Source of the DNA: Roseburia hominis
Lineage (GTDB): Bacteria > Bacillota_I > Bacilli_A > RFN20 > CAG-826
Direction of reading: 5' to 3'
NCBI GenBank assembly: GCA_963642055.1
Contig: CAVIFQ010000008.1
Location: 14,805 to 78,804, forward strand
Length of the DNA stretch: 64,000 nt
Part shown: in pieces, positions 4,875 through 31,621 of the stretch
How the letters are laid out: every line of letters starts with the position of its first letter
How positions within the stretch are numbered: the stretch's first letter is position 1
Made by a program: the position numbers and the translations under genes
The notes under the pieces: generated by a model
Seen by the model: only the letters and a program-made list of their open reading frames with translations
Told to the model about the DNA's origin: nothing
Database searches by the model: none

Positions 4875-4993
4875 TTTCATTTAGAAAATGCAACAAACTT
4901 GCATGAATTTCATTTAGAAAACGCAACATATTAGGCAAATTTTCATTTAGAAAATGCAACATATCTCTATTATTTTCATTTAGAAAATGCTAT
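4875..4993 (+). repeat. four iteron-like 20-bp repeats (TTTCATTTAGAAAATGCAAC) at exact 33-bp phasing
   Basis: Copies start at 4875, 4908, 4941 and 4974. The core contains the palindrome CATTT-AGA-AAATG. The 13-bp intervening segments differ between copies. Confidence 0.9.
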
Positions 4994-5034
4994 TTTGTGT
5001 TTGAGAATTAGCTTCTAAAACAAAGAGGTGGCCT

Positions 5035-6375
5035 ATGGAATTCAAAAGGAAAATATACAGCCAAATGAAGGAATGGAAGGAAGAGAAAAATCGTAATTCC
5101 GCTCTTTTGATTGAAGGGGCTAGACGAATCGGAAAGACAACCATCGTCAAAGAATTTGCCAAAAAAGAGTATCGCGATTTCATCTATATCGATTTCACCT
5201 ACGCTTCAGATGAAATAAAAGCCTTATTCAAAAGGATCGATCCATCCAAAAGCGGTTCGATGGATCAATTCTTCGCTGATCTTTTTCTCGTTATGGGCAA
5301 ATTATTGAAAAACGGTGATTTGATCATCTTTGACGAGGTCCAGCATTTTCCGCTTGCTCGACAAGCGATAAAAGCTCTGGTTTATGATGGGCGTTTTGAC
5401 TACATAGAGACAGGCTCATTAATCTCGATTAGAGAAAACACGCAAGGAATCCAAATGCCTTCCGAAGAAAGAAGAATCGAGATGCACCCGATGGATTTTG
5501 AGGAATTTTGCTGGGCTTTCGCTTGGGATGAGAAATGCGAATTGCTGCGCACGATTTTTAATGACCATAAAACAATGAGCGAAAGCGCCCACAAGCTTTT
5601 GATGAATGATTTCAGGCTCTATCTAGCTTTAGGAGGCATGCCCAAAGTCATTTCTCTTTACCAAGAAACAAATTCATTCATGCGATGCGAAAAAGAGAAA
5701 CGGGATATCCTCAAACTATATGAGGATGACTTAAGAAAGCATGATGATGGCGCGAAAACGCGTACTCTCGATATTTATGGTTCCATGCTTCCGGCGCTGA
5801 AGTCGTGGTCAAAGCGCATCAAGACCAAAACGAGAGGCCAAAATTCAATGAACTCCTATCAGCGTTCGCTTAAAGATTTGGAGGATTCGAAAATAGTCAA
5901 TTCCGTTTATCGATGCTCCGATTTAAGCTTCAGCTCTTTCATGAAAGAGGAAAACAGTTTCAAACTCTACCCTCTCGATGTCGGATTGATGCTGAGCTCA
6001 CTCATCGGGGATGAGAATGAAGACAGCGAAACCACATATCGCAAAATCAGGATAGGCCACATCGACGGAGCGAATTTCGGAAGTCTATACGAAACGTTCG
6101 TTCTTCAATGTTTAGTAAGCAATGGCAGAAAAGCCTTCTATCACACCTTTGAATATAACGATAAGAAATACGAGATCGATTTTCTTGCTTTCATAAAGGG
6201 CAAAATGAATGCAATCGAAGTCAAATCGACAAAGAGATTCGAAGCTACTTCCTTTCTTTCGCTTCAAGATAAATACCAACAACTTAAATTCAATAAAGTT
6301 GTCATCTCACCCAAGCCGTTGAAATACGAGGATGGGGTTACTTATTTGCCTATTTATATGGCATTCTTGCTGTAA
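5035..6375 (+). CDS. AAA+ ATPase, DUF4143-type (paralog A), with a C-terminal PD-(D/E)xK-like motif
   Basis: Walker A GARRIGKTT and Walker B IIFDEVQ. C-terminal EIDFL...IEVKS (D...ExK). RBS AAAGAGGTG lies upstream. Confidence 0.8.
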   Translation: MEFKRKIYSQMKEWKEEKNRNSALLIEGARRIGKTTIVKEFAKKEYRDFIYIDFTYASDEIKALFKRIDPSKSGSMDQFFADLFLVMGKLLKNGDLIIFDEVQHFPLARQAIKALVYDGRFDYIETGSLISIRENTQGIQMPSEERRIEMHPMDFEEFCWAFAWDEKCELLRTIFNDHKTMSESAHKLLMNDFRLYLALGGMPKVISLYQETNSFMRCEKEKRDILKLYEDDLRKHDDGAKTRTLDIYGSMLPALKSWSKRIKTKTRGQNSMNSYQRSLKDLEDSKIVNSVYRCSDLSFSSFMKEENSFKLYPLDVGLMLSSLIGDENEDSETTYRKIRIGHIDGANFGSLYETFVLQCLVSNGRKAFYHTFEYNDKKYEIDFLAFIKGKMNAIEVKSTKRFEATSFLSLQDKYQQLKFNKVVISPKPLKYEDGVTYLPIYMAFLL

Positions 6376-6504
6376 CGCTTTTTTACGAGGATCGCCGTTT
6401 TTTTCACTAATCTTTTTTGCACCGCAAAAATCAACGAAAAAGAAAAATCCCTGCAAAAATCATTTAAAAAGATAGATTTAATAAAAATCAGTGGGCGAAT
6501 ACCG

Positions 6505-7611: not shown

Positions 7612-7767
7612 CAAAGGTTCCTCTTCTCTTTGATATTCTAACAAAACAGAGAACCGTTATTAACGTTTTTCGTTCGCTAATCGTTCGCTATTTGCATTTT
7701 TAGCCCCTTATTTGAGTTCTCGAGAATAGGATTTTGGACAAAAAGAGCACTTATAAAAGCGACTATC

Positions 7768-8670: not shown

Positions 8671-8870
8671 GGAGGTCCCTCCTATCTTGAGAGGGTTAAA
8701 GAGTCCCTCACCCATATATAGAAAGAAAAAGGCTCTTTTCTCGATCGCTCTTTCTTTGAAGCATCTCTTCGCGAAATCAAAGAGAGGCCAAATGATGCTT
8801 CATTTTTCGCATCGCATATCAATTTTGCTTACATAAATAAGACCGTTTACTACCCTTAAAATTTGGCGGA

Positions 8871-8910
8871 TTTGGAAAAACTGAAAAAATTCCTAGTTTT
8901 TCCAAAATTG
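8871..8910. repeat. 40-bp palindromic element, distal copy (TTTGGAAAAACT-n12-AGTTTTTCCAAA)
   Basis: 12-bp perfect inverted arms; near-identical to the copy at 9086-9125. Confidence 0.9.
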
Positions 8911-9085
8911 AATATAAACCCTGTTTATCTCTCAATATACTACGTTGTACAACTCACTATATTTAATTAAAAAGATTCGATATTACCTAAATATTTGTCT
9001 AGTTTTATTGAAGGTTAATTTCAATATCGACCATCTATTTTTAAATAGAAAACAAAGGGCTTTTTTGTTGTTGAAAATACTCAAA

Positions 9086-9125
9086 TTTGGAAAAACTCGA
9101 AAAATTCCTAGTTTTTCCAAATTGG
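9086..9125. repeat. 40-bp palindromic element, promoter-proximal copy
   Basis: TTTGGAAAAACTcgaaaaattcctAGTTTTTCCAAA, with TATAAT at 9131-9136 and the ATG at 9157. Confidence 0.9.
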
Positions 9126-9156
9126 GGATTTATAATGCGATTGAAGGATTAAAACC

Positions 9157-10377
9157 ATGCTCATCAAAAGAGAGAATTACCTAAGCAAAATAAGACCTTT
9201 CTATGATGTTGATATCATCAAGGTCCTCGTCGGTTCTAGACGCGCTGGCAAATCGTCGATCATCGAACTCATCATCGAGGAGCTTAAGGAAAAGGGAATC
9301 GATGAATCGAATATCATTTACGTCAATTTCGAAAAACTTGAATTCGAATCCATCGACGATTACAAAAAGCTCAATGACTACGTCAATGCTCATAAAGGAA
9401 CGGGGAAGCAATATCTTTTCTTTGATGAGATACATCACGTAAAAGAATTCGAGAAGGCGATAAATTCCTTTCGCGTTTCCTTTGATTCCTCCATTTTCAT
9501 CACTGGCTCCAACTCGAAAATGCTCTCTGCCGGTATATCATCATTGCTCACCGGCAGAATCATCGAATTCACCATCTATCCTTTTACTTATGAAGAGTCC
9601 GTGCGGTGTAGAAAGGCCAACGGGAATATCATAGATAATCCTTTTTACGATTATCTGAAACTAGGCGGCTACCCACTTCGGTTCAATCTGCCAGACGAAG
9701 AATCAACCAAACTGTATCTAAACGAGCTTTACGCGAATATTTGTCAGAAGGATATTTTCGCTAGAGACACCGATATCGAAAAAACCAAGTTCAATAACAT
9801 CGCCAAGTATCTTCTCGCTAACGCGGGGAAGGATTTTAATCCACAGTCGATTTATAACTACCTGAAGTCGAATAACGGCGGCAAAGAATACTGCTCCTTA
9901 TCCAGCATTTACAACTATCTTGAGAAACTCGAGAAAGTATTTTTGTTAAAGCCAATCTATCGATATAACATCGCGAGAAAAGCCGCTTTGAAGTCAAACC
10001 CCAGATATTATGCTATCGATAATGGCGTGAGGTACGTCAACGCCCTATTCAATTCTTTCGATATTGGACGGTATTTGGAGAATCTCGTATGCATTGAGCT
10101 TCTCTCGCGCGGGTATGAAGTCTACATTGGGAGCACATACAAAGGCGAGATTGATTTCATCGCCAGCAAAAACGGGAAGAAATGTTTCATCCAAGTTGCC
10201 TATATTCTGTCTGATGAAGAGACAATCAAGCGTGAATTCGGCGCTTTTTCCTGTGTAAAGGACCCATCCCCGAAATACGTTTTCAGTCTCGATAAAATCG
10301 ATATGTCAAAAGATGGCATCACTCATATCAACATCGAGGATTTCTGCTTAGGGAAAGTAGACATATTCTTGTCCTAG
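9157..10377 (+). CDS. AAA+ ATPase, DUF4143-type (paralog B); nuclease-like motif degenerate
   Basis: Walker A GSRRAGKSS and Walker B LFFDEIH. C-terminal EIDFIA...IQVAY, i.e. QxA where ExK is expected. Confidence 0.85.
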   Translation: MLIKRENYLSKIRPFYDVDIIKVLVGSRRAGKSSIIELIIEELKEKGIDESNIIYVNFEKLEFESIDDYKKLNDYVNAHKGTGKQYLFFDEIHHVKEFEKAINSFRVSFDSSIFITGSNSKMLSAGISSLLTGRIIEFTIYPFTYEESVRCRKANGNIIDNPFYDYLKLGGYPLRFNLPDEESTKLYLNELYANICQKDIFARDTDIEKTKFNNIAKYLLANAGKDFNPQSIYNYLKSNNGGKEYCSLSSIYNYLEKLEKVFLLKPIYRYNIARKAALKSNPRYYAIDNGVRYVNALFNSFDIGRYLENLVCIELLSRGYEVYIGSTYKGEIDFIASKNGKKCFIQVAYILSDEETIKREFGAFSCVKDPSPKYVFSLDKIDMSKDGITHINIEDFCLGKVDIFLS

Positions 10378-10513
10378 AATTGCAGTACCCCATCTTTGAA
10401 GCCTCCTTTCTTTGCATCGTCTCGATAAAACTATCGACAAGCCCACTTTCTTGGGATAAAGGCTTATAATTCTTAACCAAGCACTTATCTATATTTAAAT
10501 GAAAGGGATAGAG

Positions 10514-11995
10514 ATGGAAAACATACCAACTATTAAAGTCGGGATCGTGGCGGTGAGCAGAGACTGTTTCCCCATGAGCTTATCGGTTAACCGCAGAAAA
10601 GCATTGATTGAGGCTTATGAAGAAAAATACGGGAAGAATGACATTTATGAATGCCCGATTTGCATCGTCGAGAGCGAAATCCATATGGAACAGGCTCTAG
10701 AGGATGTGAAAAAAGCCGGCTGCAACGCCTTATGCGTGTATTTGGGGAATTTCGGCCCGGAAATCAGCGAGACGATGCTTGCCGAAAGATGGTCAAAAGA
10801 GACCGGTTATCCCGTCATGTTCTGCGCGGCCGCCGAAGAAAATGTCGGTGTTCTATCCTCCGATAGAGGCGATGCTTATTGCGGCATGCTCAACGCTTCC
10901 TATAACCTCAAACTCCGCAACGTGAAGGCCTATATTCCGGAAATCCCGGTTGGTGATGCCACTCACTGCGCCTCTCTCATCCATGAATTCGTGCCGATCG
11001 CGCGCGCCATCGTAGGTCTACGCGATCTAAAAATCATCACCTTCGGCCCACACCCATCCAACTTCTTGGCCTGCAACGCCCCCATCAAACAGCTCTACAA
11101 CATCGGAGTTGAGATTGAGGAAAATTCCGAGCTCGATCTTTTCGAAAGTTTCAATAAGCATGCTGGTGATGCTCGTATCAAAGCTGTCGCCGAAGATATG
11201 GCAAAAGAACTCGGCAATGGCAATCAAAAACCTGAAATCCTCGCTAAACTGGCGCAATACGAAATCACGCTCCTTGATTGGATCAACGCGCATAAAGGAA
11301 GCAAGAAATACGTTGCGATTGCTGGCAAATGCTGGCCAGCTTTCCAGACTCAATTCGGTTTTGTCCCCTGCTACGTCAATTCGCGCCTAACTGGTAGAGG
11401 AATCCCTGTATCATGCGAGGTCGATATCTATGGCGCGCTTTCCGAATATATCGGCACCGCTTTAAGTGGAGACAGCGTCACGCTCTTAGACATCAATAAC
11501 ACCGTGCCGGAAGAGATGTATATAAAGGATATAAAGGGCAAATACGATTACGCTCTCACCGATACCTTCATGGGATTCCACTGTGGCAATACCTGCGCAA
11601 GCCGCTTGTGCAACCCGACCATGAAATATCAGAAAATCATGGCGCGTTCCTTGCCAATCGAGGTCACAAACGGCACCCTTGAAGGCGACTTGAAGGCCAG
11701 CGAAGTGACTTTCTACCGCCTCCAATCCACCGCCGACAATCATCTTTACGCTTATGTCGCGGAAGGCGAGATACTTCCAGTTGCCACCCATTCATTCGGC
11801 GGCATCGGTGTTTTCGCCATCAAAGAGATGGGAAGATTCTACCGCCACGTCTTGATTGAAAACGGCTTCCCACACCATGGGGCCGTCGCTTTTGGGCATT
11901 ATGGCAAGTTGATGTATGAGATCTTCAAATACCTCGGTGCCGAGAAAATCGGCTACAACCAAAAAGAGAAATACCCAACGGAGAACCCCTTTTAA
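10514..11995 (+). CDS. L-fucose isomerase-family sugar isomerase (probable pentose/L-arabinose isomerase by context)
   Basis: About 493 aa. The SCEVDIYGALSEYI and GFHCGN segments resemble the FucI/AraA-like superfamily. It is translationally coupled (TAATG) to the kinase gene. Confidence 0.7.
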   Translation: MENIPTIKVGIVAVSRDCFPMSLSVNRRKALIEAYEEKYGKNDIYECPICIVESEIHMEQALEDVKKAGCNALCVYLGNFGPEISETMLAERWSKETGYPVMFCAAAEENVGVLSSDRGDAYCGMLNASYNLKLRNVKAYIPEIPVGDATHCASLIHEFVPIARAIVGLRDLKIITFGPHPSNFLACNAPIKQLYNIGVEIEENSELDLFESFNKHAGDARIKAVAEDMAKELGNGNQKPEILAKLAQYEITLLDWINAHKGSKKYVAIAGKCWPAFQTQFGFVPCYVNSRLTGRGIPVSCEVDIYGALSEYIGTALSGDSVTLLDINNTVPEEMYIKDIKGKYDYALTDTFMGFHCGNTCASRLCNPTMKYQKIMARSLPIEVTNGTLEGDLKASEVTFYRLQSTADNHLYAYVAEGEILPVATHSFGGIGVFAIKEMGRFYRHVLIENGFPHHGAVAFGHYGKLMYEIFKYLGAEKIGYNQKEKYPTENPF

Positions 11996-13521
11996 TGAAA
12001 ATACTCGGTATCGAATTCGGCTCGACGCGCATCAAATCCGTTTTGATTGACGAGAAGGGCAAAGTGCTCGCGACGGGCTCTTACGAATGGAAGAACGAAC
12101 TCGTGAATGGACACTGGTCCTATTCGATGAGTGATGTCAAAAAAGGACTGCAGACTAGCTATAAGGAATTACTCATCGATTACGGAAAACCGCTCGAAAC
12201 CCTCGATGCTTTGGGAATTTCGGCGATGATGCACGGATATCTCGCTTTCGATAAAAATTGGAACTTGCTTGAACCTTTTAGAACATGGCGAGACACCACT
12301 ACATCCGAAGCAGCCGAGATTTTAAGCAAAGAGCTCGAGTTCAATATGCCTCAGCGCTGGTCCTCCACGCATTTTTATCAAGCTGCGCTCAATAAAGAGG
12401 AAACGGCTAAAAAAGTCGCGCATCTTCAGACTCTCGCTGGCTATGTCCATTATCTTTTGACAGGCGTTAACGTCCTTGGGGCAGATGATGCAAGCGGCAT
12501 GTTCCCGCTTTTAGGGAGAGAATACGACAGCGAACGCGCCTTGAAATATAACGCTCTTCTAAAAGAAAAAGGCCTAAATATCGATATCAGAGATCTTTTG
12601 CCCAAGGTCCTTCTAGCTGGCGAAAAAGCTGGGAAATTGACTTTAGAAGGCGCAAAACTTCTTGATCCAAGTGGAAGTTTAAAGCCAGGCGTCCTGCTTT
12701 GCCCGCCAGAAGGCGATATGGGAACGGGCATGATTTGCACCGATAGCGTATCCCCCACGACTGCTCAAGTATCTTCAGGCACCGCCGCGAATATGTCGGT
12801 GGTTTTAGAAAAACCGCTTGAGCATTATTACAAAGAAATCGATATCATCGCTACGCCGGACGGCCATCCCTGTGCCTTGCTTCACACCAATAACTGCACC
12901 TCCGAAATCAATGAATGGGTAAATCTCTTCGAAGAGGTGGTAAAACTTTCGGGCGGAGATATCGATAAAGGCAAATTATTCACATCGCTCTTCAACAAAG
13001 CGAGCGAAAGCGATGAAGAGGTTGGGAAACTCGTGGGATACAACTACTCAAGCGGAGAGCCTCTCGCCGACACGAAAAAAGGCGCGCCGTTACTAGTTCG
13101 TCCGCAAAACGGGAAACTCAATCTCGCCAATTTCATGCAGATGCAGGTCTATTCGGCGGTGGCAGCTCTTTCTTTAGGCACCGACATCCTCAAAAAGGAA
13201 GGTGTGAAGATAAATTCAGTCACGGCTCATGGCGGTTTCTACAAAACACCGAAAATCGGCCAATTGGCCACCAGCGCCGCTCTTGGAGCGCCAGTCACGG
13301 TCACTAATACGGCGGGAGAAGGCGGAGCATACGGCATCGCTCTACTTGCGGGATTCTCTTTAAAAGGAGAAGGAACTCTTCAAGACTACCTCAATGCCAT
13401 CTTCGCCGATGCCGATAAATTGACTCTTGTTGCCGATGCAAAAGAAAAAGCCAAATACGCTGCTTTCTTCGACAATTACAAGCGTTATCTTAGTGCAGAA
13501 AGAAAGGCCAGTGAGGTGTAA
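11995..13521 (+). CDS. FGGY-family carbohydrate kinase (ribulokinase/xylulokinase-like)
   Basis: N-terminal [15 protein letters not shown] is an actin-fold phosphate-1 motif. 508 aa; sits between the isomerase and araD. Confidence 0.8.
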
Positions 13522-13523
13522 AT

Positions 13524-14213
13524 ATGCTCGAAAAATTAAAAGAAGAAGTATGCAAAGCCAACATCGCTTTATCGAAAAGCGGACTCGTGCTTTTCACTTG
13601 GGGGAATATCTCCGCACTCGATAGAGAAAGCGGGCTCATCGTGATAAAGCCAAGCGGCGTCAAATACGAAAATATGCGCCCAAGCGATATGGTAGTCGTC
13701 GATCTGAATGGGAAAGTAATCGAAGGAGAGCTTAATCCGTCATCCGATACACCAACTCATCTTGAACTATACAAAGCCCATAAAGAGATAGGCGCCATCG
13801 TCCACACGCATTCGACTTTCGCCACCGCCTTCGCGCAAGCTGGGAAAGATATAAAAGCGTATGGCACAACCCATGCCGATTATTTTTACGGCCCTATCCC
13901 CTGCACCCGCTCGCTAGAAAAAGAAGAGATGGAAGAATATGAGAAAAACACCGGCAAAGTGATAAATGAGACTTTCTTGGACAAAGATGTGATCGCCATT
14001 CCCGCGTGTTTAGTGAAGAACCATGGCGTCTTCGCTTGGGGAAAAGACGCGGAAGAAGCCTTATACCATGCCACTGTCATCGAGGAAGTGGCCAAAATGG
14101 CTTTCATCACGGAAACGCTTGGCTGTCATTCCTCCCTCCCTCAACATATTGCCGATAAGCACTACAACCGCAAACACGGGGAAAACGCTTATTACGGGCA
14201 GAAAAAGAAATAA
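13524..14213 (+). CDS. araD: L-ribulose-5-phosphate 4-epimerase
   Basis: [24 protein letters not shown]...[11 protein letters not shown]...IVHTHS are class II aldolase/AraD hallmarks. Confidence 0.9.
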
Positions 14214-15211: not shown

Positions 15212-15436
15212 ATGAGCATGGAATATACAACTTCAGAAAAATTATCAAAATTATGGGGTATCTCCCCTAGGCAAATTCGAAAATACTGCGCCAACGGATT
15301 GATTGAAGGCGCCATCAAATGCGATAAGGCTTGGAAGATCCCAACTGAAGCAAAACGACCAAAAGATCACCGTATTAAAACTGGTAAATATTTCGATTGG
15401 AGAATGAAGTATGGCAAGAAAGTGGGACGAGAATAA
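15212..15436 (+). CDS. small helix-turn-helix DNA-binding protein (MerR/excisionase-like)
   Basis: 74 aa. SEKLSKLWGISPRQIRKYCANGLIEGA is HTH-like. Overlaps the downstream gene by 26 nt. Confidence 0.6.
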   Translation: MSMEYTTSEKLSKLWGISPRQIRKYCANGLIEGAIKCDKAWKIPTEAKRPKDHRIKTGKYFDWRMKYGKKVGRE

Positions 15437-16871
15437 ATTCAACACAAAAGAAGAGGATTTTTATTACGACCGCAAGAGCATCAATATCAAGCCAAAGGAT
15501 ATCGCGAAGACTATCATCTCCTTCGCTAACGCTGAAGGCGGAGTTATTGCGGTCGGTGTTGATGATGATAAATCCATCTCTGGAATCGATGGTCATATCA
15601 AGGAAATCAATGAGATCCGCTATGCCCCTTTTAATCTTTGCAAGCCATCCATCAACTGCGTTTTCGAAGAGATGCCAGTTGTAGATAAATTTGGGAAGCC
15701 TAACCACGTTCTTTTGATTCATGTCCCAATGAGTCCGAGTGTTCATGAGGACACCTCAGGCGAAGCTTATTGTAGGGTCGGCGACAAGAGTCCTAAAATG
15801 AGTTTCAACGAACGATTACTCCTTGCTTACGCTAGAGGCGAGCAAAGCTACGAAACTTCTCCGGTTTTTGGCTCTTCTATCGATGATATCGACAAAAATC
15901 TCGTGTTGGAGTACATGAAGAAAATCGATTATTCAATGTCATTTGAGAATTATATCAACGAGAATGATTTCGTTGTGAATAAGCGTGGTGAGGTATCTGT
16001 CAAAGCGATTCTTCTCTTCGGAAAAAGACCTCAGAGATACTTCGGCAGAGCACAAATCAGATTCATCAGATTCGAGGGAACGGAAGAGCTTACGGGTGCA
16101 GAGATGAACGTCATCAAAGACGAGATATTCGAGGGAAGATTACTCGATCAATTAAACGCGGCCATTGCCTTTGTCAGAACCCAAATCAAAGAGAGATCGT
16201 TCCTGGGTAAAGACGGTTTGTTCGTCACTATTCCTGAATATCCAGAATTTTGTTGGAAAGAGCTTATCGTCAATGCGGTTACCCATAGGGATTACTCTAT
16301 TTTGGGGACCGATATTCAAATCAAAATGTTTGATGATAAATTCGTTGTCGAAAGCCCAGGCGTTTTCGCTGGGACAGTCACGGAGAAGAATATTATGAAT
16401 AGCCACTTCTCCAGGAATAAAGCCATCGCCGCCTATATGAAGCAATACAAATTCGTCAAAGAATTCGGTGAGGGCGTCAAACGTATCTACAGGGAAATGG
16501 CTGATGCCAATCTCCCAAATCCAACCTTCAAAAAGCAGGATTTTATGACCATTGCAACAATAAGAAATAGCTTCATTAAAACCGATGTCCCTAACGATGT
16601 CCCTAACGATGTCCCTAACGATGTCCCTAACGATGTCCCTGAAAAAACAAACAAGGAAGATGATGTTAAAACGATCATCAAGGCAATAATCGAAAATCCA
16701 AAAATCACGAGAAAACAGTTAGCTATCCTTATCGGAAAATCAACGAAAACAGTTCAAAGGCTCCTTGCGTCAAGCGGAGAAATCAAGCATGTCGGCCCAT
16801 TGAACTCTGGCCATTGGGAAATTAGCGAATCAGAGCAAAACAAAACCAATTTTAAAAAAGGCGACGAATAG
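15411..16871 (+). CDS. AlbA_2 (Schlafen-like) plus HATPase_c_4 domain protein with a C-terminal wHTH (paralog F)
   Basis: IISFANAEGGVIAVGVDDD is the AlbA_2 motif and ELIVNAVTHRDYS...FVVESPG is HATPase_c_4-like. An internal (PNDV)n repeat is present. Confidence 0.8.
   Translation: MARKWDENKFNTKEEDFYYDRKSINIKPKDIAKTIISFANAEGGVIAVGVDDDKSISGIDGHIKEINEIRYAPFNLCKPSINCVFEEMPVVDKFGKPNHVLLIHVPMSPSVHEDTSGEAYCRVGDKSPKMSFNERLLLAYARGEQSYETSPVFGSSIDDIDKNLVLEYMKKIDYSMSFENYINENDFVVNKRGEVSVKAILLFGKRPQRYFGRAQIRFIRFEGTEELTGAEMNVIKDEIFEGRLLDQLNAAIAFVRTQIKERSFLGKDGLFVTIPEYPEFCWKELIVNAVTHRDYSILGTDIQIKMFDDKFVVESPGVFAGTVTEKNIMNSHFSRNKAIAAYMKQYKFVKEFGEGVKRIYREMADANLPNPTFKKQDFMTIATIRNSFIKTDVPNDVPNDVPNDVPNDVPEKTNKEDDVKTIIKAIIENPKITRKQLAILIGKSTKTVQRLLASSGEIKHVGPLNSGHWEISESEQNKTNFKKGDE
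16584..16640 (+). repeat. in-frame 12-bp tandem repeat (GATGTCCCTAAC x about 4.75)
   Basis: Encodes DVPNDVPNDVPNDVPNDVP within the linker of the AlbA_2 protein. Confidence 0.95.
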
Positions 16872-16950
16872 CAATAGAGGCTTTTACATTGAGTTGTCCA
16901 ACTTTTCCTAATATTTAGATGATGGCAGCAGTTCAATAAGCCGAAAACGC

Positions 16951-17002
16951 CAGTTAAGGGGGTAACTTTTGCATTATTTTCTATTTTTGCCCCTTTAACT
17001 GG
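16951..17002. repeat. 52-bp imperfect palindrome, copy X (CAGTTAAGGGGG...CCCCTTTAACTG)
   Basis: 45/52 identical to copy Y at 20069-20120, in the same orientation. Confidence 0.9.
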
Positions 17003-17055: not shown

Positions 17056-17087
17056 ATCAGTCTAGAGAGATATCAGTCTAGAGAGAT
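17056..17087 (+). repeat. perfect 16-bp tandem duplication (ATCAGTCTAGAGAGAT x2)
   Basis: Read directly; lies about 160 bp upstream of the abiEi start. Confidence 0.9.
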
Positions 17088-17246
17088 ATTAGATAGAGTC
17101 ACTTCTCTCTTTGGTGGTGCCTCAAAGCAGTGTTTTTTCATGTAGGTCGCCACTTAATCTTGTAACGATATCACTCTGAATTCGATCTTGACGTATTATT
17201 GTTTTGCTCCATTAAATCCAATATAATTGTATTTAGAGGTGCAAAT

Positions 17247-17840
17247 ATGATTATTACGATATCCATGCTCAAGGATAAATTTCGTGATTACGCAAATCCT
17301 CTCGACAAGATAAAAAGGGATGCGGATAAAGGTCTTATCATTAGACTTACCAAGGGCATTTACGAAACCGACAAGAACGTTGACCCGTGCCTATTGGCTT
17401 CGTCTATCCTTTCTCCATCCTATCTCAGTTTCGACTGGGCTTTGTCTTATTATGGATTGATCCCTGAAAGAGTGGCTTCTATCACCTCCGCTACTTTGGG
17501 TAATCGAAAAAACAAGACTTTCGAAAACTATTTCGGGAGATACGAATATACGGATATACCCGCTAAAGCGTTCTCGGAAGGGCTAACGTATCTTGAAAAC
17601 AGGGACTATATTGTGAAAATCGCGACCAAGGAAAAGGCGATATGCGACTCCCTCTGCAAATGGAGAGTGGCAAAAAATGTCAAAGAGCTCAAAGAGCTTC
17701 TATTTATGGATAAGAGGTTCGATGAAGAAGAATTTGAAACTTGTGATTTCAAACTAATGGCTAGTCTCGCCACTCTATATGACAAAAAGAACCTCAAATT
17801 GCTAATAAAGCTCATCAGAAAGGAGTATCTCCATGAGTAG
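17247..17840 (+). CDS. AbiEi-family type IV antitoxin/transcriptional regulator
   Basis: About 197 aa. The GLIIRLTKGIYET segment, size and 8-nt overlap with an AbiEii gene fit AbiEi. ATG has an AGAGGTG RBS. Confidence 0.7.
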   Translation: MIITISMLKDKFRDYANPLDKIKRDADKGLIIRLTKGIYETDKNVDPCLLASSILSPSYLSFDWALSYYGLIPERVASITSATLGNRKNKTFENYFGRYEYTDIPAKAFSEGLTYLENRDYIVKIATKEKAICDSLCKWRVAKNVKELKELLFMDKRFDEEEFETCDFKLMASLATLYDKKNLKLLIKLIRKEYLHE

Positions 17841-18705
17841 CGTTATCGAAATGATGCTCACAAAATATAATCCCAAGAACAACGAAGAAAGGGAGAATGC
17901 CGCCAAGGAAATAATCCAGGAAATCGCTTTGGCGGGTCTTTCGCGCGGAGGTTTCTTCGAGAAAGCCGCCTTTTACGGAGGCACGTGCCTAAGGATTTTC
18001 CATGGTCTCAACCGCTTCAGCGAGGATCTTGATTTCGCGCTACTAGAAGATGACCCCGATTTCAAATTGAATAAGTATTTCGGGGCTCTGGAAAGGGAAT
18101 TCGCCTCTTATGGAATAGAAATCCACGTTGAGGAAAAGAAGAAGACTTTCGACTCGGGCGTTCAAAGTGCATTCCTCAAGGGCAATACATTGGCTTTGAT
18201 GATGAGCTTCTTCCCCAAAAACGAAGAAGCAAAGAAAATCATCTCGAATCAGAAAATGAAGATCAAATTCGAGGTGGACACCGAGAAAATAGATGGCGGA
18301 AGGACCAAGACGAAATATAGGTTTCTCCCAGCCCCATATGAAGTAAAAGTATTTGATGAACCCACTTTATTCACTGGTAAAATCCACGCGATTATTTGCA
18401 GGAATTACAAAAATCGCGTAAAAGGGAGAGACTACTACGACTATCTTTTTTATATCGGCAAGGGTTCAAGATTTAACCTCGTTTATCTTGAGAACAAACT
18501 CAAAAATTCCAATCTGCTTTTGCAAAACGAAAGCCTGACGCTTACCCAGGTCAAGGAGATGTTAAAGGAAAGATTTGAAGGCGTCGATTACTCGTCGGCC
18601 AAAGAAGACGTGTCGAATTTCATAACCGACAAAGATAGCTTGAGATTGTGGAAGAAAGAGTTATTCCTCGCGACGCTTGAAGAGCTAAAAGCAGTAAGCG
18701 ATTAA
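17833..18705 (+). CDS. AbiEii/AbiGii-family nucleotidyltransferase toxin
   Basis: FYGGTCLRIFHGLNRFSEDLDFAL matches the AbiEii NTase motif (GGTxL...R.SxDLDF). Confidence 0.85.
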   Translation: MSSVIEMMLTKYNPKNNEERENAAKEIIQEIALAGLSRGGFFEKAAFYGGTCLRIFHGLNRFSEDLDFALLEDDPDFKLNKYFGALEREFASYGIEIHVEEKKKTFDSGVQSAFLKGNTLALMMSFFPKNEEAKKIISNQKMKIKFEVDTEKIDGGRTKTKYRFLPAPYEVKVFDEPTLFTGKIHAIICRNYKNRVKGRDYYDYLFYIGKGSRFNLVYLENKLKNSNLLLQNESLTLTQVKEMLKERFEGVDYSSAKEDVSNFITDKDSLRLWKKELFLATLEELKAVSD

Positions 18706-18765: not shown

Positions 18766-20013
18766 CTAAAACCTTTCACCGTTACCGATAAAGTCAATTA
18801 TATTCACGTGTTTTATGCCGCTTCTTTTCTGCAAAAGGCGATCCATGGTCACAAGATACCTTGGGTAATTGTCCTTGGTCGTTTCAAGAGGTCTATATTC
18901 GCGGTTCTCGGTTTCTTCGCTGATAGCGATAGTACGAGCAACCTGAATATAAGCGTAGTGCCCATCCGTTCCGCGCACGATGAAGTCGCATTCGAACTTT
19001 CCGAATTTCCCAACGCTCACTGAATAATCGAGCGATTTCGCGTAGTTATGGACAATATTCTCGAGCACTGGCCCGTAATTTATCTTGTTGTCGGTGTTCA
19101 AAGCATAATAAAAGGATAAGTCGGATAGGTAGAATTTCTTCTCCCCAGACAACGAACGCTTGGACTTCATATCGAAACGATTGCAGGGCATTATGATTTT
19201 GGCATCGATGAGCGCCTCAATGTACCTATTGACCGTCTCCCTTTTGATGATGACGCCATCTTTCGCTAAAGCATCAACGATATTGCTGATGCTGGTCGTC
19301 GCACCAAAATTGTTGATGATATAGTTCATGACGATCTCGAAAACGGACTTCTGCCTTATCTTCACACGCCTACGGATATCCTTCTCGAATATCTCCAGCA
19401 TAAGATTTTTGACATAGGTTCTTTTATCGCTTTCCGAAGAAAGATTCAAAGCGTAAGGGAAGCCGCCTCCTAAAATATAACTTTGAATTTCCGCTTCCTT
19501 ATCATTATCAATCGGTAGCTGAAAATGACGTTTTGCCGCCAAATATTCATCGAATGTGTAAGGGAAGATATCAAACTCGATGTAGCGGCCCGTTAGTTTC
19601 GTAACTAGCTCTCCAGATAGCAAATAGGAGTTCGACCCCGTCACGAAGATGGAGAAATTGCCCTCCTCTCTCCAAGCATTAAGAATGATCTCGAAGCCCT
19701 TCACGTTCTGCACCTCATCAATGAAGAGGTATTTCTTCCCTTGCGCCTTTGCGTTTTTCTCAATAAGAGCATCCAATTTATCAGGCGTATCAATACCGAT
19801 GTAGGGCCTTTTGTCGAGATTGAAATAAAGGATATTTTCCTCTTTGACGCCTTGCGCAAGAAGATCGCGGATAATCAAATTCATTATCGATGATTTTCCG
19901 CACCGCCTTACGCCAGTCAAAACCTTGATGAGGTCGCACTCATGATAAAAGCCTCTTATCTTAGATAGATACTTCTCGCGTTTGAATAAATCTTTGCTCA
20001 CGTCTATATCCAT
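18766..20013 (-). CDS. AAA+ ATPase, DUF4143-type (paralog C); nuclease-like motif degenerate
   Basis: Walker A GVRRCGKSS and Walker B LFIDEVQ. C-terminal ECDFIV...IQVAR. ATG at 20013 is preceded by GGAGGTG. Confidence 0.85.
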   Translation of the reverse strand: MDIDVSKDLFKREKYLSKIRGFYHECDLIKVLTGVRRCGKSSIMNLIIRDLLAQGVKEENILYFNLDKRPYIGIDTPDKLDALIEKNAKAQGKKYLFIDEVQNVKGFEIILNAWREEGNFSIFVTGSNSYLLSGELVTKLTGRYIEFDIFPYTFDEYLAAKRHFQLPIDNDKEAEIQSYILGGGFPYALNLSSESDKRTYVKNLMLEIFEKDIRRRVKIRQKSVFEIVMNYIINNFGATTSISNIVDALAKDGVIIKRETVNRYIEALIDAKIIMPCNRFDMKSKRSLSGEKKFYLSDLSFYYALNTDNKINYGPVLENIVHNYAKSLDYSVSVGKFGKFECDFIVRGTDGHYAYIQVARTIAISEETENREYRPLETTKDNYPRYLVTMDRLLQKRSGIKHVNIIDFIGNGERF

Positions 20014-20068
20014 GTGCGCACCTCCAAAAGGTTTCAATAATTATACGACATCCAAAAACTGAAATTGC

Positions 20069-20120
20069 AAGTTAAGGGGGTAACTTTTGAATTTTTAACG
20101 ATTTTTACCCCTTTAACTGG
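20069..20120. repeat. 52-bp imperfect palindrome, copy Y
   Basis: Lies 56-107 bp upstream of the ATPase C start; a direct copy of X. Confidence 0.9.
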
Positions 20121-20594
20121 CATATTCATGTGCTTACAAAACATATTTGGTTTACGGATATTTTCGTGAACGAATCAGAATGAGAATATTATTCCCTCAG
20201 CTTTGTTTATTCATGTGATGATGGTTATTTCGACATCCTCAAGACTCCCCTTCAGTTTCCCATGGAAATACTCAAGTAAGGTATCCGCGCACACGTTTGA
20301 GACGAATGTCCTCTTGATGAAGCGGATTTTCTCGTCCTTGGAGACACCGGATACGGGATTATCTATATTCTTCGCCAGAATCTTTTTCATCTTGCTGATG
20401 AAACAATTAAGGTCGGTGGCATTTGCTCGGTTTTGATGATTCTTCTTGCTCTCCCCCTCTCTCCTCTATCTACTCGATAACTTCGTGCTGAAAATCACAT
20501 TAAAGAAGAAAATCAAGCGAACTTGGTTGCAGCAATATTCGATAATGCCAGGATCTTTAAGTCAATTCCATAGCAACTTCATACATTCCGCTTC

Positions 20595-20682
20595 TAGACT
20601 TTTTCAAGGGAGTTTTCAATGAGATGCTAGACTTTTTCAAGGGAGTTTTATTAATGAACGAAGACTTTTTCAAGGGAGTTTT
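20595..20682. repeat. three 22-bp repeats (tAGACTTTTTCAAGGGAGTTTT) at exact 33-bp phasing
   Basis: Copies start at 20595, 20628 and 20661. The 11-bp intervening segments differ. Confidence 0.9.
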
Positions 20683-25208: not shown

Positions 25209-25226
25209 AGCTCCATAACTATAGTC

Positions 25227-26159: not shown

Positions 26160-26164
26160 ATGCG

Positions 26165-27121: not shown

Positions 27122-27194
27122 ATCTTCGCGCTTCAAACGCAAGGAAGATGATATGAGCATCATCAGTCCTTGTCAATCAATTTTTCGGGATTGT

Positions 27195-27271
27195 TGGCGC
27201 GCCCGAGCCGATTCGAACGGCTGACCCCTTCCTTAGGAGGGAAGTGCTCTGTCCAGCTGAGCTACGGGCGC
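27195..27271 (-). tRNA. tRNA-Arg (anticodon CCU)
   Basis: Anticodon loop CTCCTAA; acceptor and T arms nearly identical to tRNA-Arg(CCG). Confidence 0.9.
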
Positions 27272-27307
27272 ACGCAAGAACGTATTCTATCACATTCTCG
27301 AGGAATC

Positions 27308-28390
27308 CTATTCTTTTTTGAAACTTAAGGCCCAGCCTAAAGAATAGAGAATGAAGAATATGAAGGAGAAGATACCTGATAATAAAAGTTTCCAGCTTTC
27401 ACCGCTCCCAGTATCGATGAATGAAAACCCGATCGTGAAGGAAGCAAAAACGAGATTCGCAATGGCAAAGAATCCGACAAAGCGCCGGAATGGGCCATAT
27501 CCTAGATAGCTTGATATCGCCCCGATGCCGGCGATAAGAAGGAAAAGGAAAGATAAAGTCATGGTGATGGCGTAAATTATGATGAAGGCGGGTGAAACTT
27601 GATATTCAGGCTTCAAAATATCGCTGATGCTCGACAAAAGGCTCGATACGGATATTGCAAGGAAGCCGCTTCCAGAGATAAGAAGCAACTCTTTGGATAA
27701 GCGCTTGACCTTGCTTTCTTCCGCCCACTGCTTGAAGACATCCTCGCATTTTTCTGCAGCAAGGCATTTTTTGCTCTCACCATCGATGAAGGAAATGGAA
27801 CTCACGCAGTTGCGGAGCCTCATCGTTCTCTTTTTCTCTTCGCTTGGCGAAAGGAACATGATGGATACTGCTTCCCAAATGAAGACCCAGCCGACGATAT
27901 CGATGACCTCGGTCAATAAGTCCTTTAAGGAGTCACTCCCGAACCAGCCGTTGTGGCCGCCGGCAATCATGAACACCAAACAGGAGATACCCGCCACAAG
28001 GAGCAAAGCGATGCGGAGACCGTTCTTTTTGCTCTCGCTCAAAACGCTGTAGTGCCCCATCTCCACCGCATCATTGAAGGAAGCGATGAGCGTTTTCGGG
28101 TCATACCCTTCATAGTCATCAATCGCGAAATTCAAATCGACGCGATAGTCGACCGGAACGCGCGAGATGATATCGCCGACTCTCGCTAAAATATCGCCAT
28201 TGAACTCAGGATGCTCTTCCGAAAAATAGTCATTCACGAAAAGCTCGCTGGCTTTTTCATAAGCAAGCGTTATCTTGACTGTCTTTTTCGTCTCGTCTAC
28301 TTCATAGTACTTCTTAAGCAGCTCGATTTGTCTGGCTTTGATAGGATTATATTGCTCACTTTTCTTTTTCATCGCGCTTATTTTATCCAT
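27308..28390 (-). CDS. hypothetical membrane protein (soluble N-domain plus about 6 TM segments)
   Basis: Long ORF with hydrophobic segments; I recognise no family. Confidence 0.5.
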   Translation of the reverse strand: MDKISAMKKKSEQYNPIKARQIELLKKYYEVDETKKTVKITLAYEKASELFVNDYFSEEHPEFNGDILARVGDIISRVPVDYRVDLNFAIDDYEGYDPKTLIASFNDAVEMGHYSVLSESKKNGLRIALLLVAGISCLVFMIAGGHNGWFGSDSLKDLLTEVIDIVGWVFIWEAVSIMFLSPSEEKKRTMRLRNCVSSISFIDGESKKCLAAEKCEDVFKQWAEESKVKRLSKELLLISGSGFLAISVSSLLSSISDILKPEYQVSPAFIIIYAITMTLSFLFLLIAGIGAISSYLGYGPFRRFVGFFAIANLVFASFTIGFSFIDTGSGESWKLLLSGIFSFIFFILYSLGWALSFKKE

Positions 28391-28500
28391 ACGTATCTTC
28401 CTTCGAAACTTTTTTCATTAGGATGATGCAAATTAATCGACTCTATGAAAATGTGAAAGCCATATTTTTGATGTTAGGTCTTTCTATAAAGAAACAAAAA

Positions 28501-28539
28501 AACTCCAAATTTTACTAACTTTAGTATTTTTTGGAGTTT
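28501..28539. repeat. 39-bp nested palindrome, copy D1 (CTCCAAAttTTACTAActTTAGTAttTTTTGGAG)
   Basis: 37/39 identical to copy D2; lies 12 bp beyond the ATPase D stop codon. Confidence 0.9.
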
Positions 28540-28550
28540 TAAGTATTAGG

Positions 28551-29792
28551 CTAGATACATCTAATTGGAAAGGCATAGGTCTGAGATGAGATCCGGTATG
28601 GCTCTTCAGTTGAGCAAATGATGCATTGGCCGGCGATGTTGTAACTCGAATTCAATAATTGTTTGAATCCTTTTATATCCTTAAGACCGTAGTTCTTGCC
28701 GGATTTAGCCTCCACCAAATAAAGATTCCCGTCTTTGCGGAGAATGAGATCGATTTCGTTTTGGTTATTGTCGCGATAAAAGGATAGCTCGACATCGCCA
28801 TTGGCATGGTTGACGTACGTCTTCTTGATTTCGTTGAAGATATAAGTCTCGATGATTCTGCCCTTAAAAGGTGACATCGATAAGGTTTTGGGGGTATCGA
28901 TACCCATAAGGTGACAGGCTAAACCGGTGTCATTCATATAAATCTTCTTCGTTTTCACGATTCGCTTATTCATCGAACTTTCATAATATGGATTCAAAAA
29001 GGTGACTAGGTTGCTCGCCAACAAAATGCCCATCCATGAATCGACCGTCTTATTGTCGATGCCGATGGTTTTGGCGATGTTATTGGCGTTATATTCTTCG
29101 CCCGTCAATGAGGCGACAACTTTGAGGAAATTACTAAATCTATTCGTGTCTCTGACGTTCATGAGCTCAGAAACGTCTTTATCTATATAGGTTTTGACGT
29201 AGTTAGAATAGAAATTCTTGATTGGCTTATCGGGTATTTCCCATCTAGCTGGATAAAAGCCTCGTAGGACCGATGAATAGAAATCTTCGTCGCTCAATGA
29301 TCTTTGGCTAGCTTTTGTAAACATCTTTTCATTATCGACGATGAACTCTTCTTCCTTCCATCCTCTTAATTCGCACTGGCTCAAAGGCTCCATCTCGATG
29401 ATGCTACAGCGCCCTGAAAGAGATTCGCTGACGCCTTTCATCAGCTGGAACTTTTGACTCCCGGTCAATATGTACATCCCATTCGCGGAGTTGGCCCCCT
29501 TCTCTTTCCGGACTTTGTTTACCTGGCTTTCGATTTCGATGAAAAGCTCTTTCGCTCTTTGGATCTCATCGATGATCAAAGGGTAGCCAGTTTCCTCGAT
29601 GAACTTCTTCGGATTGCTCTTCGCCGAAAGGAGAAGATCGGTATCATCGAAAGTGATGTATTTGAAACCCTGCTTCTCGAAATGAGAAACAAGGGTCGAT
29701 TTCCCTACTTGTCTAGCGCCCGTTACCAAAGTAACCGGATACTCCGAAATCGAGTTTTTTATCGAGTTAAGAATCGTTCGCTCGTAAATCAT
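28551..29792 (-). CDS. AAA+ ATPase, DUF4143-type (paralog D), PD-(D/E)xK-like motif intact
   Basis: Walker A GARQVGKST and Walker B LIIDEIQ. C-terminal EIDLIL...LVEAKSGK. Confidence 0.85.
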   Translation of the reverse strand: MIYERTILNSIKNSISEYPVTLVTGARQVGKSTLVSHFEKQGFKYITFDDTDLLLSAKSNPKKFIEETGYPLIIDEIQRAKELFIEIESQVNKVRKEKGANSANGMYILTGSQKFQLMKGVSESLSGRCSIIEMEPLSQCELRGWKEEEFIVDNEKMFTKASQRSLSDEDFYSSVLRGFYPARWEIPDKPIKNFYSNYVKTYIDKDVSELMNVRDTNRFSNFLKVVASLTGEEYNANNIAKTIGIDNKTVDSWMGILLASNLVTFLNPYYESSMNKRIVKTKKIYMNDTGLACHLMGIDTPKTLSMSPFKGRIIETYIFNEIKKTYVNHANGDVELSFYRDNNQNEIDLILRKDGNLYLVEAKSGKNYGLKDIKGFKQLLNSSYNIAGQCIICSTEEPYRISSQTYAFPIRCI

Positions 29793-29824
29793 GCTTATCC
29801 TTTAATCAAAGTATAAGAATAATG

Positions 29825-29863
29825 AATTCCAAATTCTACTAACTTTAGTATTTTTTGGAGTTT
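29825..29863. repeat. 39-bp nested palindrome, copy D2
   Basis: Lies 33-71 bp upstream of the ATPase D start; in direct orientation relative to D1. Confidence 0.9.
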
Positions 29864-30001
29864 GTAATCATAAAACACACATAAATCCTTAATATTGCGC
29901 AAATGGAAACTGAAAATTAGTTCGTATTGCATAAGTCGCATTTTTCCACTGGAACGCAATTAAACGGCTTGCTTATTGCTTTGGAACATAGGGCTACTTC
30001 T

Positions 30002-30066
30002 CAAACCTAGAAGTTTAGAAGCAAACCTAGAAGTGCCTAGAAGTAATCTTAGAAGTGCCTAGAAGT
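30002..30066 (+). repeat. three 22-bp tandem units, each with two YTAGAAGT half-sites (upstream array)
   Basis: caaacctagaagtttagaagc / aaacctagaagtgcctagaagt / aatcttagaagtgcctagaagt. Confidence 0.9.
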
Positions 30067-30105
30067 TTTGCTTTCATTGATGTATTGTTTTCTCGAGGTC
30101 TCGTT

Positions 30106-31578
30106 ATGAATTTTGAAGAACTATACCCAGGCGTAAATCTAGAAACCGATAAAATCGAATTCAAAGGCTTTTTATTGAAAGGCGAAGGAAAAAGCGGCCA
30201 AGAAATGGAAATGACTTGGCTAAAGACGATCGCTGCCTTCGCTAACGGAGAAGGCGGTTCTATTTTCGTTGGTGTGGAAGATAAAAGCCATAAAATCGTC
30301 GCTTTATCGCAAGAAGAAGCCGATAAGCAAGCTCTTTTGATTCAAAAAGAAATAAAGCAAAGGATTGAGCCAGCCGTAAATTACACAATAAAGCCCATAT
30401 CAATAAAAGGAACTGAAACAAGATATCTCCTGGAAATCAAAGTCAGCGCTTCCTTGTCAAAACCAGTGTTTGTTCACGATAGAGGAGCCGCCGTTGTCTT
30501 CGTCCGCGATTTCTCCTCTTCGCGTCTAGCGACCCCTGAAGAAATCCGTAATCTCGTCTTATCGAGTGAGAATATCTCTTACGATTCGTTTTTCACTGAC
30601 AGTGTCTATAAGAAAGAGGATTTCTCCATTTTCCAAAACGCCATGATTAAGGCGGCGGGGAAAGAGGCTTCGCAGAAGCAGCTCATTTCAATTGGCTTCT
30701 GCGATTCTACTCTTCGTTTATCCAAAGGCGCTTTGCTTTTTCGTGATGACTGCACTTCTCCTCTTACAAGGATCGATGTGACTTTTTATCCTTCGATAAA
30801 TAAAGGAGAACGGATAATGCTCACCCCTGCTTCTTTTTGCGGGCCTATCAACAAAGTCATCGATGAAGCCACTTTCTATATAATGTCGCATTCCAATACC
30901 GTTTGGATGAAAACCGATACTGGAAGAGAAGAAAGGCCATCATTCCCCGAGCGTTCAGTGCGTGAAGCCATCAGCAACGCTTTAGCGCACCGCAACTACT
31001 ATATGAGCACCTCAATTATCGAAGTTGATGTTTATGTAGATAGACTAGAAGTCACTTCCCCCGGTTCCTTGTTGGGGAGCAAGCGGATCGTCAAAGAAAC
31101 GAACATAACCGCAATCGTTCCAAGAAGAAGGAACGAAGTCATCGCTAGAACATTAGAAGCCATACATTACGTTGAGAATAAAGGCAGCGGGTTCGATCTA
31201 ATCGCTGAGGAATACTATGCATCTTCTTTTGAGCATAAGCCGTTCATCAACGCCGATCAGAATCATTTCACGCTCGTTTTGCCGAATTTGAACTACGCGA
31301 AGGGCGTGATCGATGAAGAGAACGACGCTCCAACGGTCTACGTAAATGACGTAACGTTGACCGAAAGAGATCTCAAGATCCTCTCTCTTTGCTACGTAAA
31401 CAAGAAATTGGCCAGCGAGATTGCCTCTGGCTTAGGAATCACTTCTTCAACCTATTTCCGTAACACCATTTTGGGCAAACTCATCAAAAAAGAATACTTG
31501 CTCGTCGATTCTAGCGGAGCTTATCCCCATTACCTTTCAAATCACTCTTTAGTAAAACTCGTTCCTAGCGATTTCTAA
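30106..31578 (+). CDS. AlbA_2 (Schlafen-like) plus HATPase_c_4 domain protein with a C-terminal wHTH (paralog E)
   Basis: TIAAFANGEGGSIFVGVEDK is the AlbA_2 motif and REAISNALAHRNYY...LEVTSPG is HATPase_c_4-like. ATG at 30106; the ORF track starts at a GTG inside the repeat array. Confidence 0.8.
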   Translation: MNFEELYPGVNLETDKIEFKGFLLKGEGKSGQEMEMTWLKTIAAFANGEGGSIFVGVEDKSHKIVALSQEEADKQALLIQKEIKQRIEPAVNYTIKPISIKGTETRYLLEIKVSASLSKPVFVHDRGAAVVFVRDFSSSRLATPEEIRNLVLSSENISYDSFFTDSVYKKEDFSIFQNAMIKAAGKEASQKQLISIGFCDSTLRLSKGALLFRDDCTSPLTRIDVTFYPSINKGERIMLTPASFCGPINKVIDEATFYIMSHSNTVWMKTDTGREERPSFPERSVREAISNALAHRNYYMSTSIIEVDVYVDRLEVTSPGSLLGSKRIVKETNITAIVPRRRNEVIARTLEAIHYVENKGSGFDLIAEEYYASSFEHKPFINADQNHFTLVLPNLNYAKGVIDEENDAPTVYVNDVTLTERDLKILSLCYVNKKLASEIASGLGITSSTYFRNTILGKLIKKEYLLVDSSGAYPHYLSNHSLVKLVPSDF

Positions 31579-31621
31579 AGCTAGAAGTGCTAGAAGTAAA
31601 CCTAGAAGTGCCTAGAAGTAA
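31579..31621 (+). repeat. two units of the same CTAGAAGT repeat (downstream array)
   Basis: The 24 bp aaacctagaagtgcctagaagtaa at 31598-31621 is identical to 30023-30046. The array starts right after the stop codon. Confidence 0.9.

Follow-up and report, generated by a model that had tools for sequence, protein, structure and literature searches.

Private repeat sets beside four DUF4143 ATPase genes and an AlbA_2 gene in a gut bacterial defence-gene island: candidate cognate operators

The DNA studied here is a 64-kb stretch (the window) of contig CAVIFQ010000008.1, in which genes were called from a listing of open reading frames (ORFs) and from Pfam scans. It carries a PolC-type polymerase, and its nearest relatives are uncultured gut Bacilli. 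Five of its genes, each accompanied by a repeat set of its own, are the subject of this report. Four of them encode paralogous ATPases, namely gene A (5035-6375, plus strand), gene B (9157-10377, plus strand), gene C (18766-20013, minus strand, with an alternative TTG start at 20037) and gene D (28551-29792, minus strand). The fifth, gene E (30106-31578, plus strand), encodes a protein with AlbA_2 and HATPase_c_4 domains, in which no recognisable nuclease or recombinase domain was found with Pfam. In A to D, AAA_14 (PF13173, 82-116 bits) precedes DUF4143 (PF13635, 42-147 bits) in N-to-C order, both above the gathering threshold, and all four proteins matched the PADLOC profiles of PDC-S01 over their full length (E = 6e-87 for A, 1e-129 for B, 2e-132 for C and 6e-99 for D).

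PDC-S01, an ATPase fused to a PD-(D/E)xK domain, is a single-gene phage-defence candidate. Among the defence candidates of prokaryotes it is reported to be the fourth most common and, like most PDCs, it still awaits experimental validation (PMC12988326). In rumen genomes it is the most frequent single locus (PMC13356809). DUF4143/COG1373 is among the listed PD-(D/E)xK families, with function unknown (PMC3424549), and among the genes often shared between gut genera (PMC10782964); S01 is not mentioned in the main text of the preprint that is the source of the PDCs. The neighbourhood of A to E also holds SoFic, an ArdC-like gene and AbiE. In agreement with the first-pass annotation of this DNA, which had been made from the letters and the ORFs, no integrase or transposase domain was found by Pfam among the ORFs examined.

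Gene A is preceded by four 17-nt iterons (TTTCATTTAGAAAATGC; 4875-4990, plus strand, with units at 4875, 4908, 4941 and 4974) that follow a 33-bp period, the last of them ending 45 nt short of the ATG. Gene B has two copies, 95% identical, of the palindrome TTTGGAAAAACT-N13-AGTTTTTCCAAA, a distal one at 8870-8906 and a promoter-proximal one at 9085-9121, the latter being followed by TATAAT and, 36 nt on, by the ATG. In the case of gene C, a palindrome core of about 53 nt (20068-20120) is followed by TATAAT and the start codon. The distal copy (CAGTTAAGGGGGTAA...TTGCCCCTTTAACTG; 16950-17002) lies about 195 nt upstream of AbiEi, beyond the AbiEi/AbiEii pair (17199-18705, plus strand) that separates it from the stop codon of C. 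Gene D has a 39-nt palindrome at 29825-29863, 33 nt before the ATG and with TATACT between them, and a 95% identical copy at 28500-28540, 11 nt after its stop codon; this repeat extends about 17 nt past the palindrome on the gene side. Gene E lies between two plus-strand arrays of TAGAAGT units, one upstream with an 11-nt period (30008-30070) and one of four units downstream (31581-31625), the first of which is 3 nt past the stop codon. The repeats of A and E are direct and do not fold (z = 0.27 for the downstream array of E). The TATAAT-like boxes behind the proximal copies of B, C and D, and those in the homologues, were read by eye.

The five sets, each distinct and upstream of its gene, lie where the first-pass annotation had placed them. 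Its second copies (upstream for B, beyond AbiE for C, after the stop codon for D and E) were likewise recovered, both with a repeat finder and by direct reading; the three 22-bp units that it had given for E proved to be units of an 11-nt period. Copies within each set are joined by exact seeds of 17-27 nt, and shuffled sequence yielded only about seven seeds of 15 nt per 64 kb. Each motif occurs in two to four copies in the window, all of them beside the cognate gene. With tRNA genes, coding paralogues and one in-gene tandem repeat set aside, these five sets and two further ones (described below) are the only strong noncoding repeats in the window.

The repeats are inherited with the genes. 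Homologues of D with 60-75% amino acid identity, at five other loci, carried the same palindrome about 30 nt before the ATG and just past the stop codon (consensus AACTCCAAA-N3-TACTAAA-N-TTTAGTA-N3-TTTGGAGTT), and the DNA outside the palindromes was unrelated among these loci. At one D homologue (L023), CTCACAA/TTGTGAG was present in both arms of both copies, which is a compensatory change. A homologue of C (L081, 69% amino acid identity) showed the palindrome GTTAAGGGGGTA...TACCCCCTTAAC 40 nt upstream of its start codon and 35 nt downstream of its stop codon. Since the palindrome directly follows the stop codon there, the AbiE pair of the window sits inside a bracket that is tight elsewhere. 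Most C homologues carried upstream a palindrome built on one template, A-GTTA-[~8 variable nt]-T-rich/spacer/A-rich-[complement]-TAAC-T, which ends about 45-55 nt before the ATG and whose variable core differs by locus and is mirrored in the opposite arm.

Similarly, two B orthologues (76-79% amino acid identity) in different contexts carried TTTGAAAAACT-N12-AGTTTTTCAAA before TATAAT and again 20-35 nt past the stop codon; compared with them, gene B of the window, with both copies upstream, is an exception. Five E orthologues (57-98% amino acid identity), which have quite different neighbours, were all preceded by six to eight TAGAAGT units and followed by four, starting 2-25 nt after the stop codon. 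The A homologues (37-42% amino acid identity), found in many metagenomes, had two to four upstream iterons of unrelated sequence, and at all 36 distinct loci with an upstream direct repeat the best one had a period of 33, 34 or double that; no downstream copy was present in any A homologue examined. Geometry is thus conserved clade by clade, with iterons in A and, in the B and C clades, a split palindrome of about 37-50 bp next to the putative promoter; four families (B, C, D and E) also show a recurrent copy behind the stop codon.

Across the family, 149 loci were scanned, with neighbouring genes for comparison. An upstream inverted repeat with at least 13 matches was detected for 46 of 144 ATPase genes and for 22 of 286 neighbours, and flanking direct repeats were detected for 34 of 134 ATPase genes (25%) and 11 of 280 others (4%). 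In one kind of flanking repeat (L081, L097, L105, L106, L113 and L037), the private palindrome has a duplicate at the stop codon. The similarity of operator arms tracked protein identity (rho 0.46, a value reached in 12 of 2000 permutations). A search of 596 Gb of genomes gave the pattern of the D palindrome in only 10 stretches, five of which flank D-like genes and five of which are solitary, in unrelated places. Viral contigs yielded neither the D palindrome nor E homologues.

The four ATPases fall into two groups by their nuclease motif. A (EIDF...IEVKS) and D (EIDL...VEAKS) keep the catalytic D...ExK, and in B (IQVAY) and C (IQVAR) the D is kept and the E and K are replaced. This division, already noticed in the first-pass annotation, extends to the clades: ExK was present in 58 of 64 D-type and 11 of 14 A-type proteins, and QxA in 66 of 83 B/C-type proteins, to which eight with QxT or QxS can be added (74/83). 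Because QxA is kept clade-wide, the domain seems to be retained under selection in B and C, where, judging from these residues, it has probably lost normal catalysis. The AlphaFold model of D (pLDDT 90.5) had as its best Protein Data Bank matches the Pyrococcus Walker ATPase 2qen and the DNA-bound Orc1/Cdc6 2qby, with TM-scores of only 0.25-0.43; further matches were ORC, Apaf-1/Avs, DnaA (1l8q), RuvB and MuB. The protein is predicted to consist of an initiator/STAND-like (Orc/Cdc6-like) AAA+ core, a helical middle and a C-terminal alpha/beta domain, and its helical region 213-266 is a putative winged helix.

Comparison with relatives showed that D and E lie in a variable site. In three relatives (L160, L161 and L164; PolC 82-84%), a homologue of the 360-aa gene at 27308-28390 directly follows PolC, and therefore the 28.4-35.1-kb region of the window is a variable insert. 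It holds D, E and a pair of genes of 876 and 185 aa, and lies beside tRNA-Pro (35071-35147). At the same spot, L169 (PolC 93%) carries an A-like ATPase, a B/C-like ATPase and an E orthologue, with D not there, and L159 carries an A-like ATPase; the A-like genes of both have upstream iterons and no downstream copy, as other A homologues do. In its behaviour, this slot (28391-35070), bounded by PolC/tRNA-Pro on one side and the 360-aa gene on the other, is a hotspot for single-gene defence candidates.

Within this hotspot, two strains with 94-96% nucleotide identity, represented by a 17-kb NCBI contig (L294) and an independent Logan contig (L295), lack positions 30067-31575 of the window, that is, gene E. 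Their order is an 889-aa gene, one merged TAGAAGT array and D, and the two alignments share 23 nt within the array, which places the breakpoint in the E arrays. Given that the arrays accompany E at other loci, the simplest reading of the solitary array is that a deletion left it behind. A presence/absence polymorphism with its breakpoint at the repeats, which the first-pass annotation had named as a check, was in this way found for E. Three other contigs (L291, L292 and L285) keep E and lack 31663-35018, and in L285 and L291 E lies about 350 nt from PolC. The missing segment comprises the 876-aa and 185-aa genes, which have no Pfam domains and are present in L294; it is a third independent indel of the hotspot, and no flanking repeat was seen there.

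For D, the only candidate of this kind, a solitary palindrome at the start of the L285 contig, is ambiguous: the 13 nt beyond it match the downstream flank in the same assembly and also align, gapped, to the D promoter, and another contig of that assembly (L296) begins 15 nt before the D ATG. At the candidate empty D site of L169, the intergenic DNA is too diverged for alignment. Identical D-type proteins on many contigs (P0113, P0047) occur in one context each and are uninformative on mobility. At another pair of loci, L084 and L124, the bounds of homology coincide with the 44-nt flanking repeat, in a neighbourhood too rearranged for interpretation. Many B, D and E homologues come only from contigs of 1.3-1.6 kb holding about one gene and one repeat. 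One of the unit-length contigs, L293, is exactly array-E-array, which fits an assembler loop arising from a repeat-gene-repeat layout or a circular molecule.

With moderate confidence, and on the strength of sequence comparison, we interpret the repeat sets as cognate operators bound by the product of their own gene. Autoregulatory operators were one of two explanations offered in the first-pass annotation, and they gain support from the inheritance of motif and geometry with the gene, the position by a -10-like box and the arms that change together. The conserved spacing and the predicted Orc/Cdc6-like fold argue in the same direction. Linkage, conserved geometry, paired arm changes, promoter-side position and presence/absence polymorphism were seen directly; we infer from them that each protein binds the repeats of its gene, acts as a repressor and forms loops. 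As the single-gene units share no other gene, their own product is the only protein co-inherited with the motif.

Under the operator interpretation, the protein would control its own transcription through the promoter-proximal set. Half-sites or iterons about 33-36 bp apart, as in the A, B and C clades, would fit an oligomer that contacts one face of the DNA. Binding specificity would have diverged lineage by lineage, which would be the reason why every paralogue has its own motif. The second set, close behind the stop codon in four of the families (B, C, D and E), could serve as a second operator, by looping or as a roadblock or insulator. This downstream set is probably functional, since it is kept in four families and the E array is not a terminator. 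Finally, because the second set is a direct repeat of the first, recombination between the two would remove the gene precisely and leave one solitary repeat.

Several observations weigh against this interpretation. A strict sigma-70 consensus scan of 28.3-31.8 kb returned no promoter, so that the promoter overlap rests on the -10-like boxes read by eye. On the gene strand, the downstream D copy forms a hairpin followed by a U run and looks like an intrinsic terminator, and the palindromes in general could act as DNA or RNA hairpins. A downstream copy was detectable in only about one-quarter of the ATPase homologues, and the loci scanned are not phylogenetically independent, which makes P values such as that for the flanking repeats (Fisher P of about 3e-10) rough. 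The second AlbA_2 gene of the window, gene F (15411-16871), is without a private repeat of the kind found for A to E; the claim of the first-pass annotation that every DUF4143 or AlbA_2 gene carries one therefore holds for A to E and fails for F. A second kind of flanking repeat, a duplication of 60-450 nt of host sequence, is not explained by operators. At two D-family loci the 3' end of the upstream host gene was duplicated together with its terminator over 60-125 nt (L040, 2839-2899/4323-4384; L030, 2698-2822/4236-4359). At a third (L038, 2253-2360/3737-3842), the repeat separates two successive ATPase genes in a repeat-gene-repeat-gene array. These 60- to 450-nt duplications look like scars left by integration or duplication and, at L038, by repeated insertion at one site.

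The strongest competitor, which we nevertheless regard as rather unlikely, is that the units are autonomous mobile cassettes, whose att-like repeats would allow the gene to excise with one repeat as a circle and to reintegrate, with the ATPase-nuclease or a repeat-recognising host recombinase as the catalyst. The self-contained cassettes of the first-pass annotation are supported as units gained or lost, because E is absent from close relatives with the breakpoint within its arrays, D palindromes occur alone and flanking repeats are more frequent at these genes than at others (25% versus 4%); as autonomous mobile elements they are not supported. The difference in E between strains that are 94-96% identical, with its breakpoint inside the arrays, and the solitary D palindromes at five unrelated loci are what a mobile cassette would leave, but precise loss is also accounted for, without a dedicated enzyme, by RecA-mediated recombination or by slippage during replication where direct repeats measure at least 40 nt. 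Likewise, the many homologues known only from unit-length contigs, L293 among them, might point to excised circles, but a de Bruijn assembler gives such contigs for any repeat-gene-repeat layout. The closest homologues are in bins assigned to very different taxa, but the taxon labels of some bins may be wrong. The PolC/tRNA-Pro slot, with its varying gene combinations and with none in L160, L161 and L164, the host 3'-end and terminator duplications and the L038 array also speak for mobility. On the other hand, no circular junction and no insertion event was seen among the loci compared, and identical proteins stay in one context each. Moreover, the A-type genes, and gene B of the window likewise, are without a downstream copy, the B/C clade is bracketed alike without the ExK catalytic residues, and the nuclease-less gene E has the same layout.

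It is very unlikely that the loci are relics or integrated forms of tiny replicons, with an AAA+ initiator of the Orc/Cdc6 or DnaA kind and the repeats as origin. Such replicons would account for the regularly spaced iterons directly upstream of an AAA+ gene, the structural matches to Orc1/Cdc6 on origin DNA and to DnaA, the AT-rich spacers inside the palindromes and the existence of unit-length contigs. The box clusters on either side of the gene also recall the Bacillus dnaA region, in which they lie on both sides of the initiator gene. Yet all contexts examined were chromosomal, between housekeeping genes or in defence islands, no contig was demonstrated to be circular, E has the same layout without an initiator-like fold, and fused nuclease domains are not known from initiators. 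We find it scarcely credible that the repeats are generic structural elements (REP-like sequences, terminators or insulators) unrelated to the encoded proteins, as might be suggested by the hairpin and U run of the downstream D copy and by one locus (L090) with a terminator-like hairpin on both sides of the gene. REP-like and other generic repeats were rejected on the grounds that the motifs are confined to their genes, each lying only beside its own in the 64 kb, that they are rare, with 10 stretches of the D palindrome in 596 Gb, and that they are absent from viral contigs. Motifs were also kept across contexts at 57-79% protein identity, where unconstrained noncoding DNA is not expected to be alignable. 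Terminators as a general explanation were rejected because the E arrays and A iterons, being direct repeats, do not fold and because the upstream copies lie at promoters. An integron was rejected because no ORF examined contained an integrase domain.

The two further repeat sets of the window lie near gene C and the AbiE pair. Three perfect or near-perfect 23-nt units (CTAGACTTTTTCAAGGGAGTTTT; 20594-20682), whose 33-bp period is of the A-type geometry, sit between gene C and tRNA-Leu with no intact gene attached. A blastx search matched 20281-20388 (minus strand) to residues 253-288 of an A-like ATPase (E = 4e-4, a weak remnant), and these iterons and the remnant may together represent an A-type unit that has decayed. 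About 110 nt upstream of AbiEi, a pair of 17-nt units in tandem (ATCAGTCTAGAGAGATAT; 17056-17089) is distinct from the C palindrome, which lies 60 nt further upstream, and may serve as an operator of AbiEi. Gene F (AlbA_2+HATPase_c_4+HTH_24) is preceded, and slightly overlapped, by a 74-aa HTH_17/MerR-like ORF (15212-15436), which may represent a different way to regulate the same kind of gene. Its coding region contains five tandem 12-nt units (CGATGTCCCTAA; 16583-16642) that would encode a short repeated tetrapeptide near the C-terminal HTH. Between B and F, in the middle of the defence-gene island, lies a sugar-utilisation operon (10499-14213) with a fucose-isomerase-like gene, an FGGY kinase and a class II aldolase; its G+C content is 0.47-0.49, versus 0.38-0.43 in its surroundings.

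The gene family itself is already known, as are autoregulated defence genes, and the element is therefore not undescribed in the full sense proposed by the first-pass annotation, since the family is catalogued as PDC-S01. In the literature searched, no description was found of family-wide private repeats, of their fixed geometry, of the operator-gene-operator bracket or of solitary-repeat footprints. The repeats give an abundant, uncharacterised family a concrete candidate DNA target. If each PDC-S01 member binds a private motif in its flanks, the target specificities of the family would be predictable, the family would be directly testable at predicted sites, and the clade with the replaced nuclease motif could be compared with the intact clade on matched DNA sites. 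The bracketing layout would also offer a simple explanation for the clean loss of single defence genes from hotspots. Its presence at an AlbA_2 gene, which is unrelated, hints that genes that are self-contained and independent of context may follow this design more generally. A bolder conjecture, to which we attach a low probability, is that PDC-S01 is a vast family of sequence-specific DNA sensors and nucleases whose recognition sequence can be read from the flanking repeats. On this view, the sites around its gene would keep the oligomer inactive in a self-repressing loop, and it would be released or activated by foreign DNA carrying similar sites or by loss of the locus. These sites would also turn the gene into a cassette that can be excised and transferred, and the result would be a methylation-independent, restriction-like immunity with thousands of private specificities.

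Among known systems, the catalogued PDC-S01 shares with genes A to D the full-length profile, the ATPase plus PD-(D/E)xK architecture and a variable island with SoFic and AbiE, but its catalogue entry derives from genomic association, and no cognate repeats are mentioned in the literature searched. Integron cassettes resemble the units described here in being single genes, each with its own imperfect palindrome, that stand side by side at one hotspot; they differ in that the window has no IntI and no attI, and in that the gene has a copy of its repeat on either side instead of one attC at its 3' end. No GTTRRRY core was noticed, in an analysis that did not search for one. RAYT genes are flanked by lineage-specific REP palindromes, of which a genome holds tens to hundreds of dispersed copies. 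The likeness is that of a single gene flanked by palindromes specific to its lineage, but the motifs of the window are confined to gene flanks and there is no Y1 transposase. With Orc1/Cdc6 at its origin recognition boxes (ORB) and with the box clusters of DnaA, the window proteins share a predicted AAA+ initiator/STAND-like fold with a putative winged helix, encoded beside repeats; unlike those initiators, they have a fused PD-(D/E)xK domain, many paralogues per genome and private motifs. In phage lambda, the CI regulator gene lies between its own operator clusters, OR and OL, 2-3 kb apart, and is autoregulated by looping. Here, too, the gene is bracketed by what would be its own operators, at the promoter and downstream, although CI is a small HTH repressor and not an AAA+ protein, and in our case the second set lies at most 40 nt from the stop codon and looping is only presumed. 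In BrxR/CapW-type regulators and AbiEi, a sequence-specific repressor binds inverted repeats in the promoter of its own defence genes; in the units described here, by contrast, the presumed regulator and the effector would be one polypeptide, and the sites are duplicated past the stop codon.

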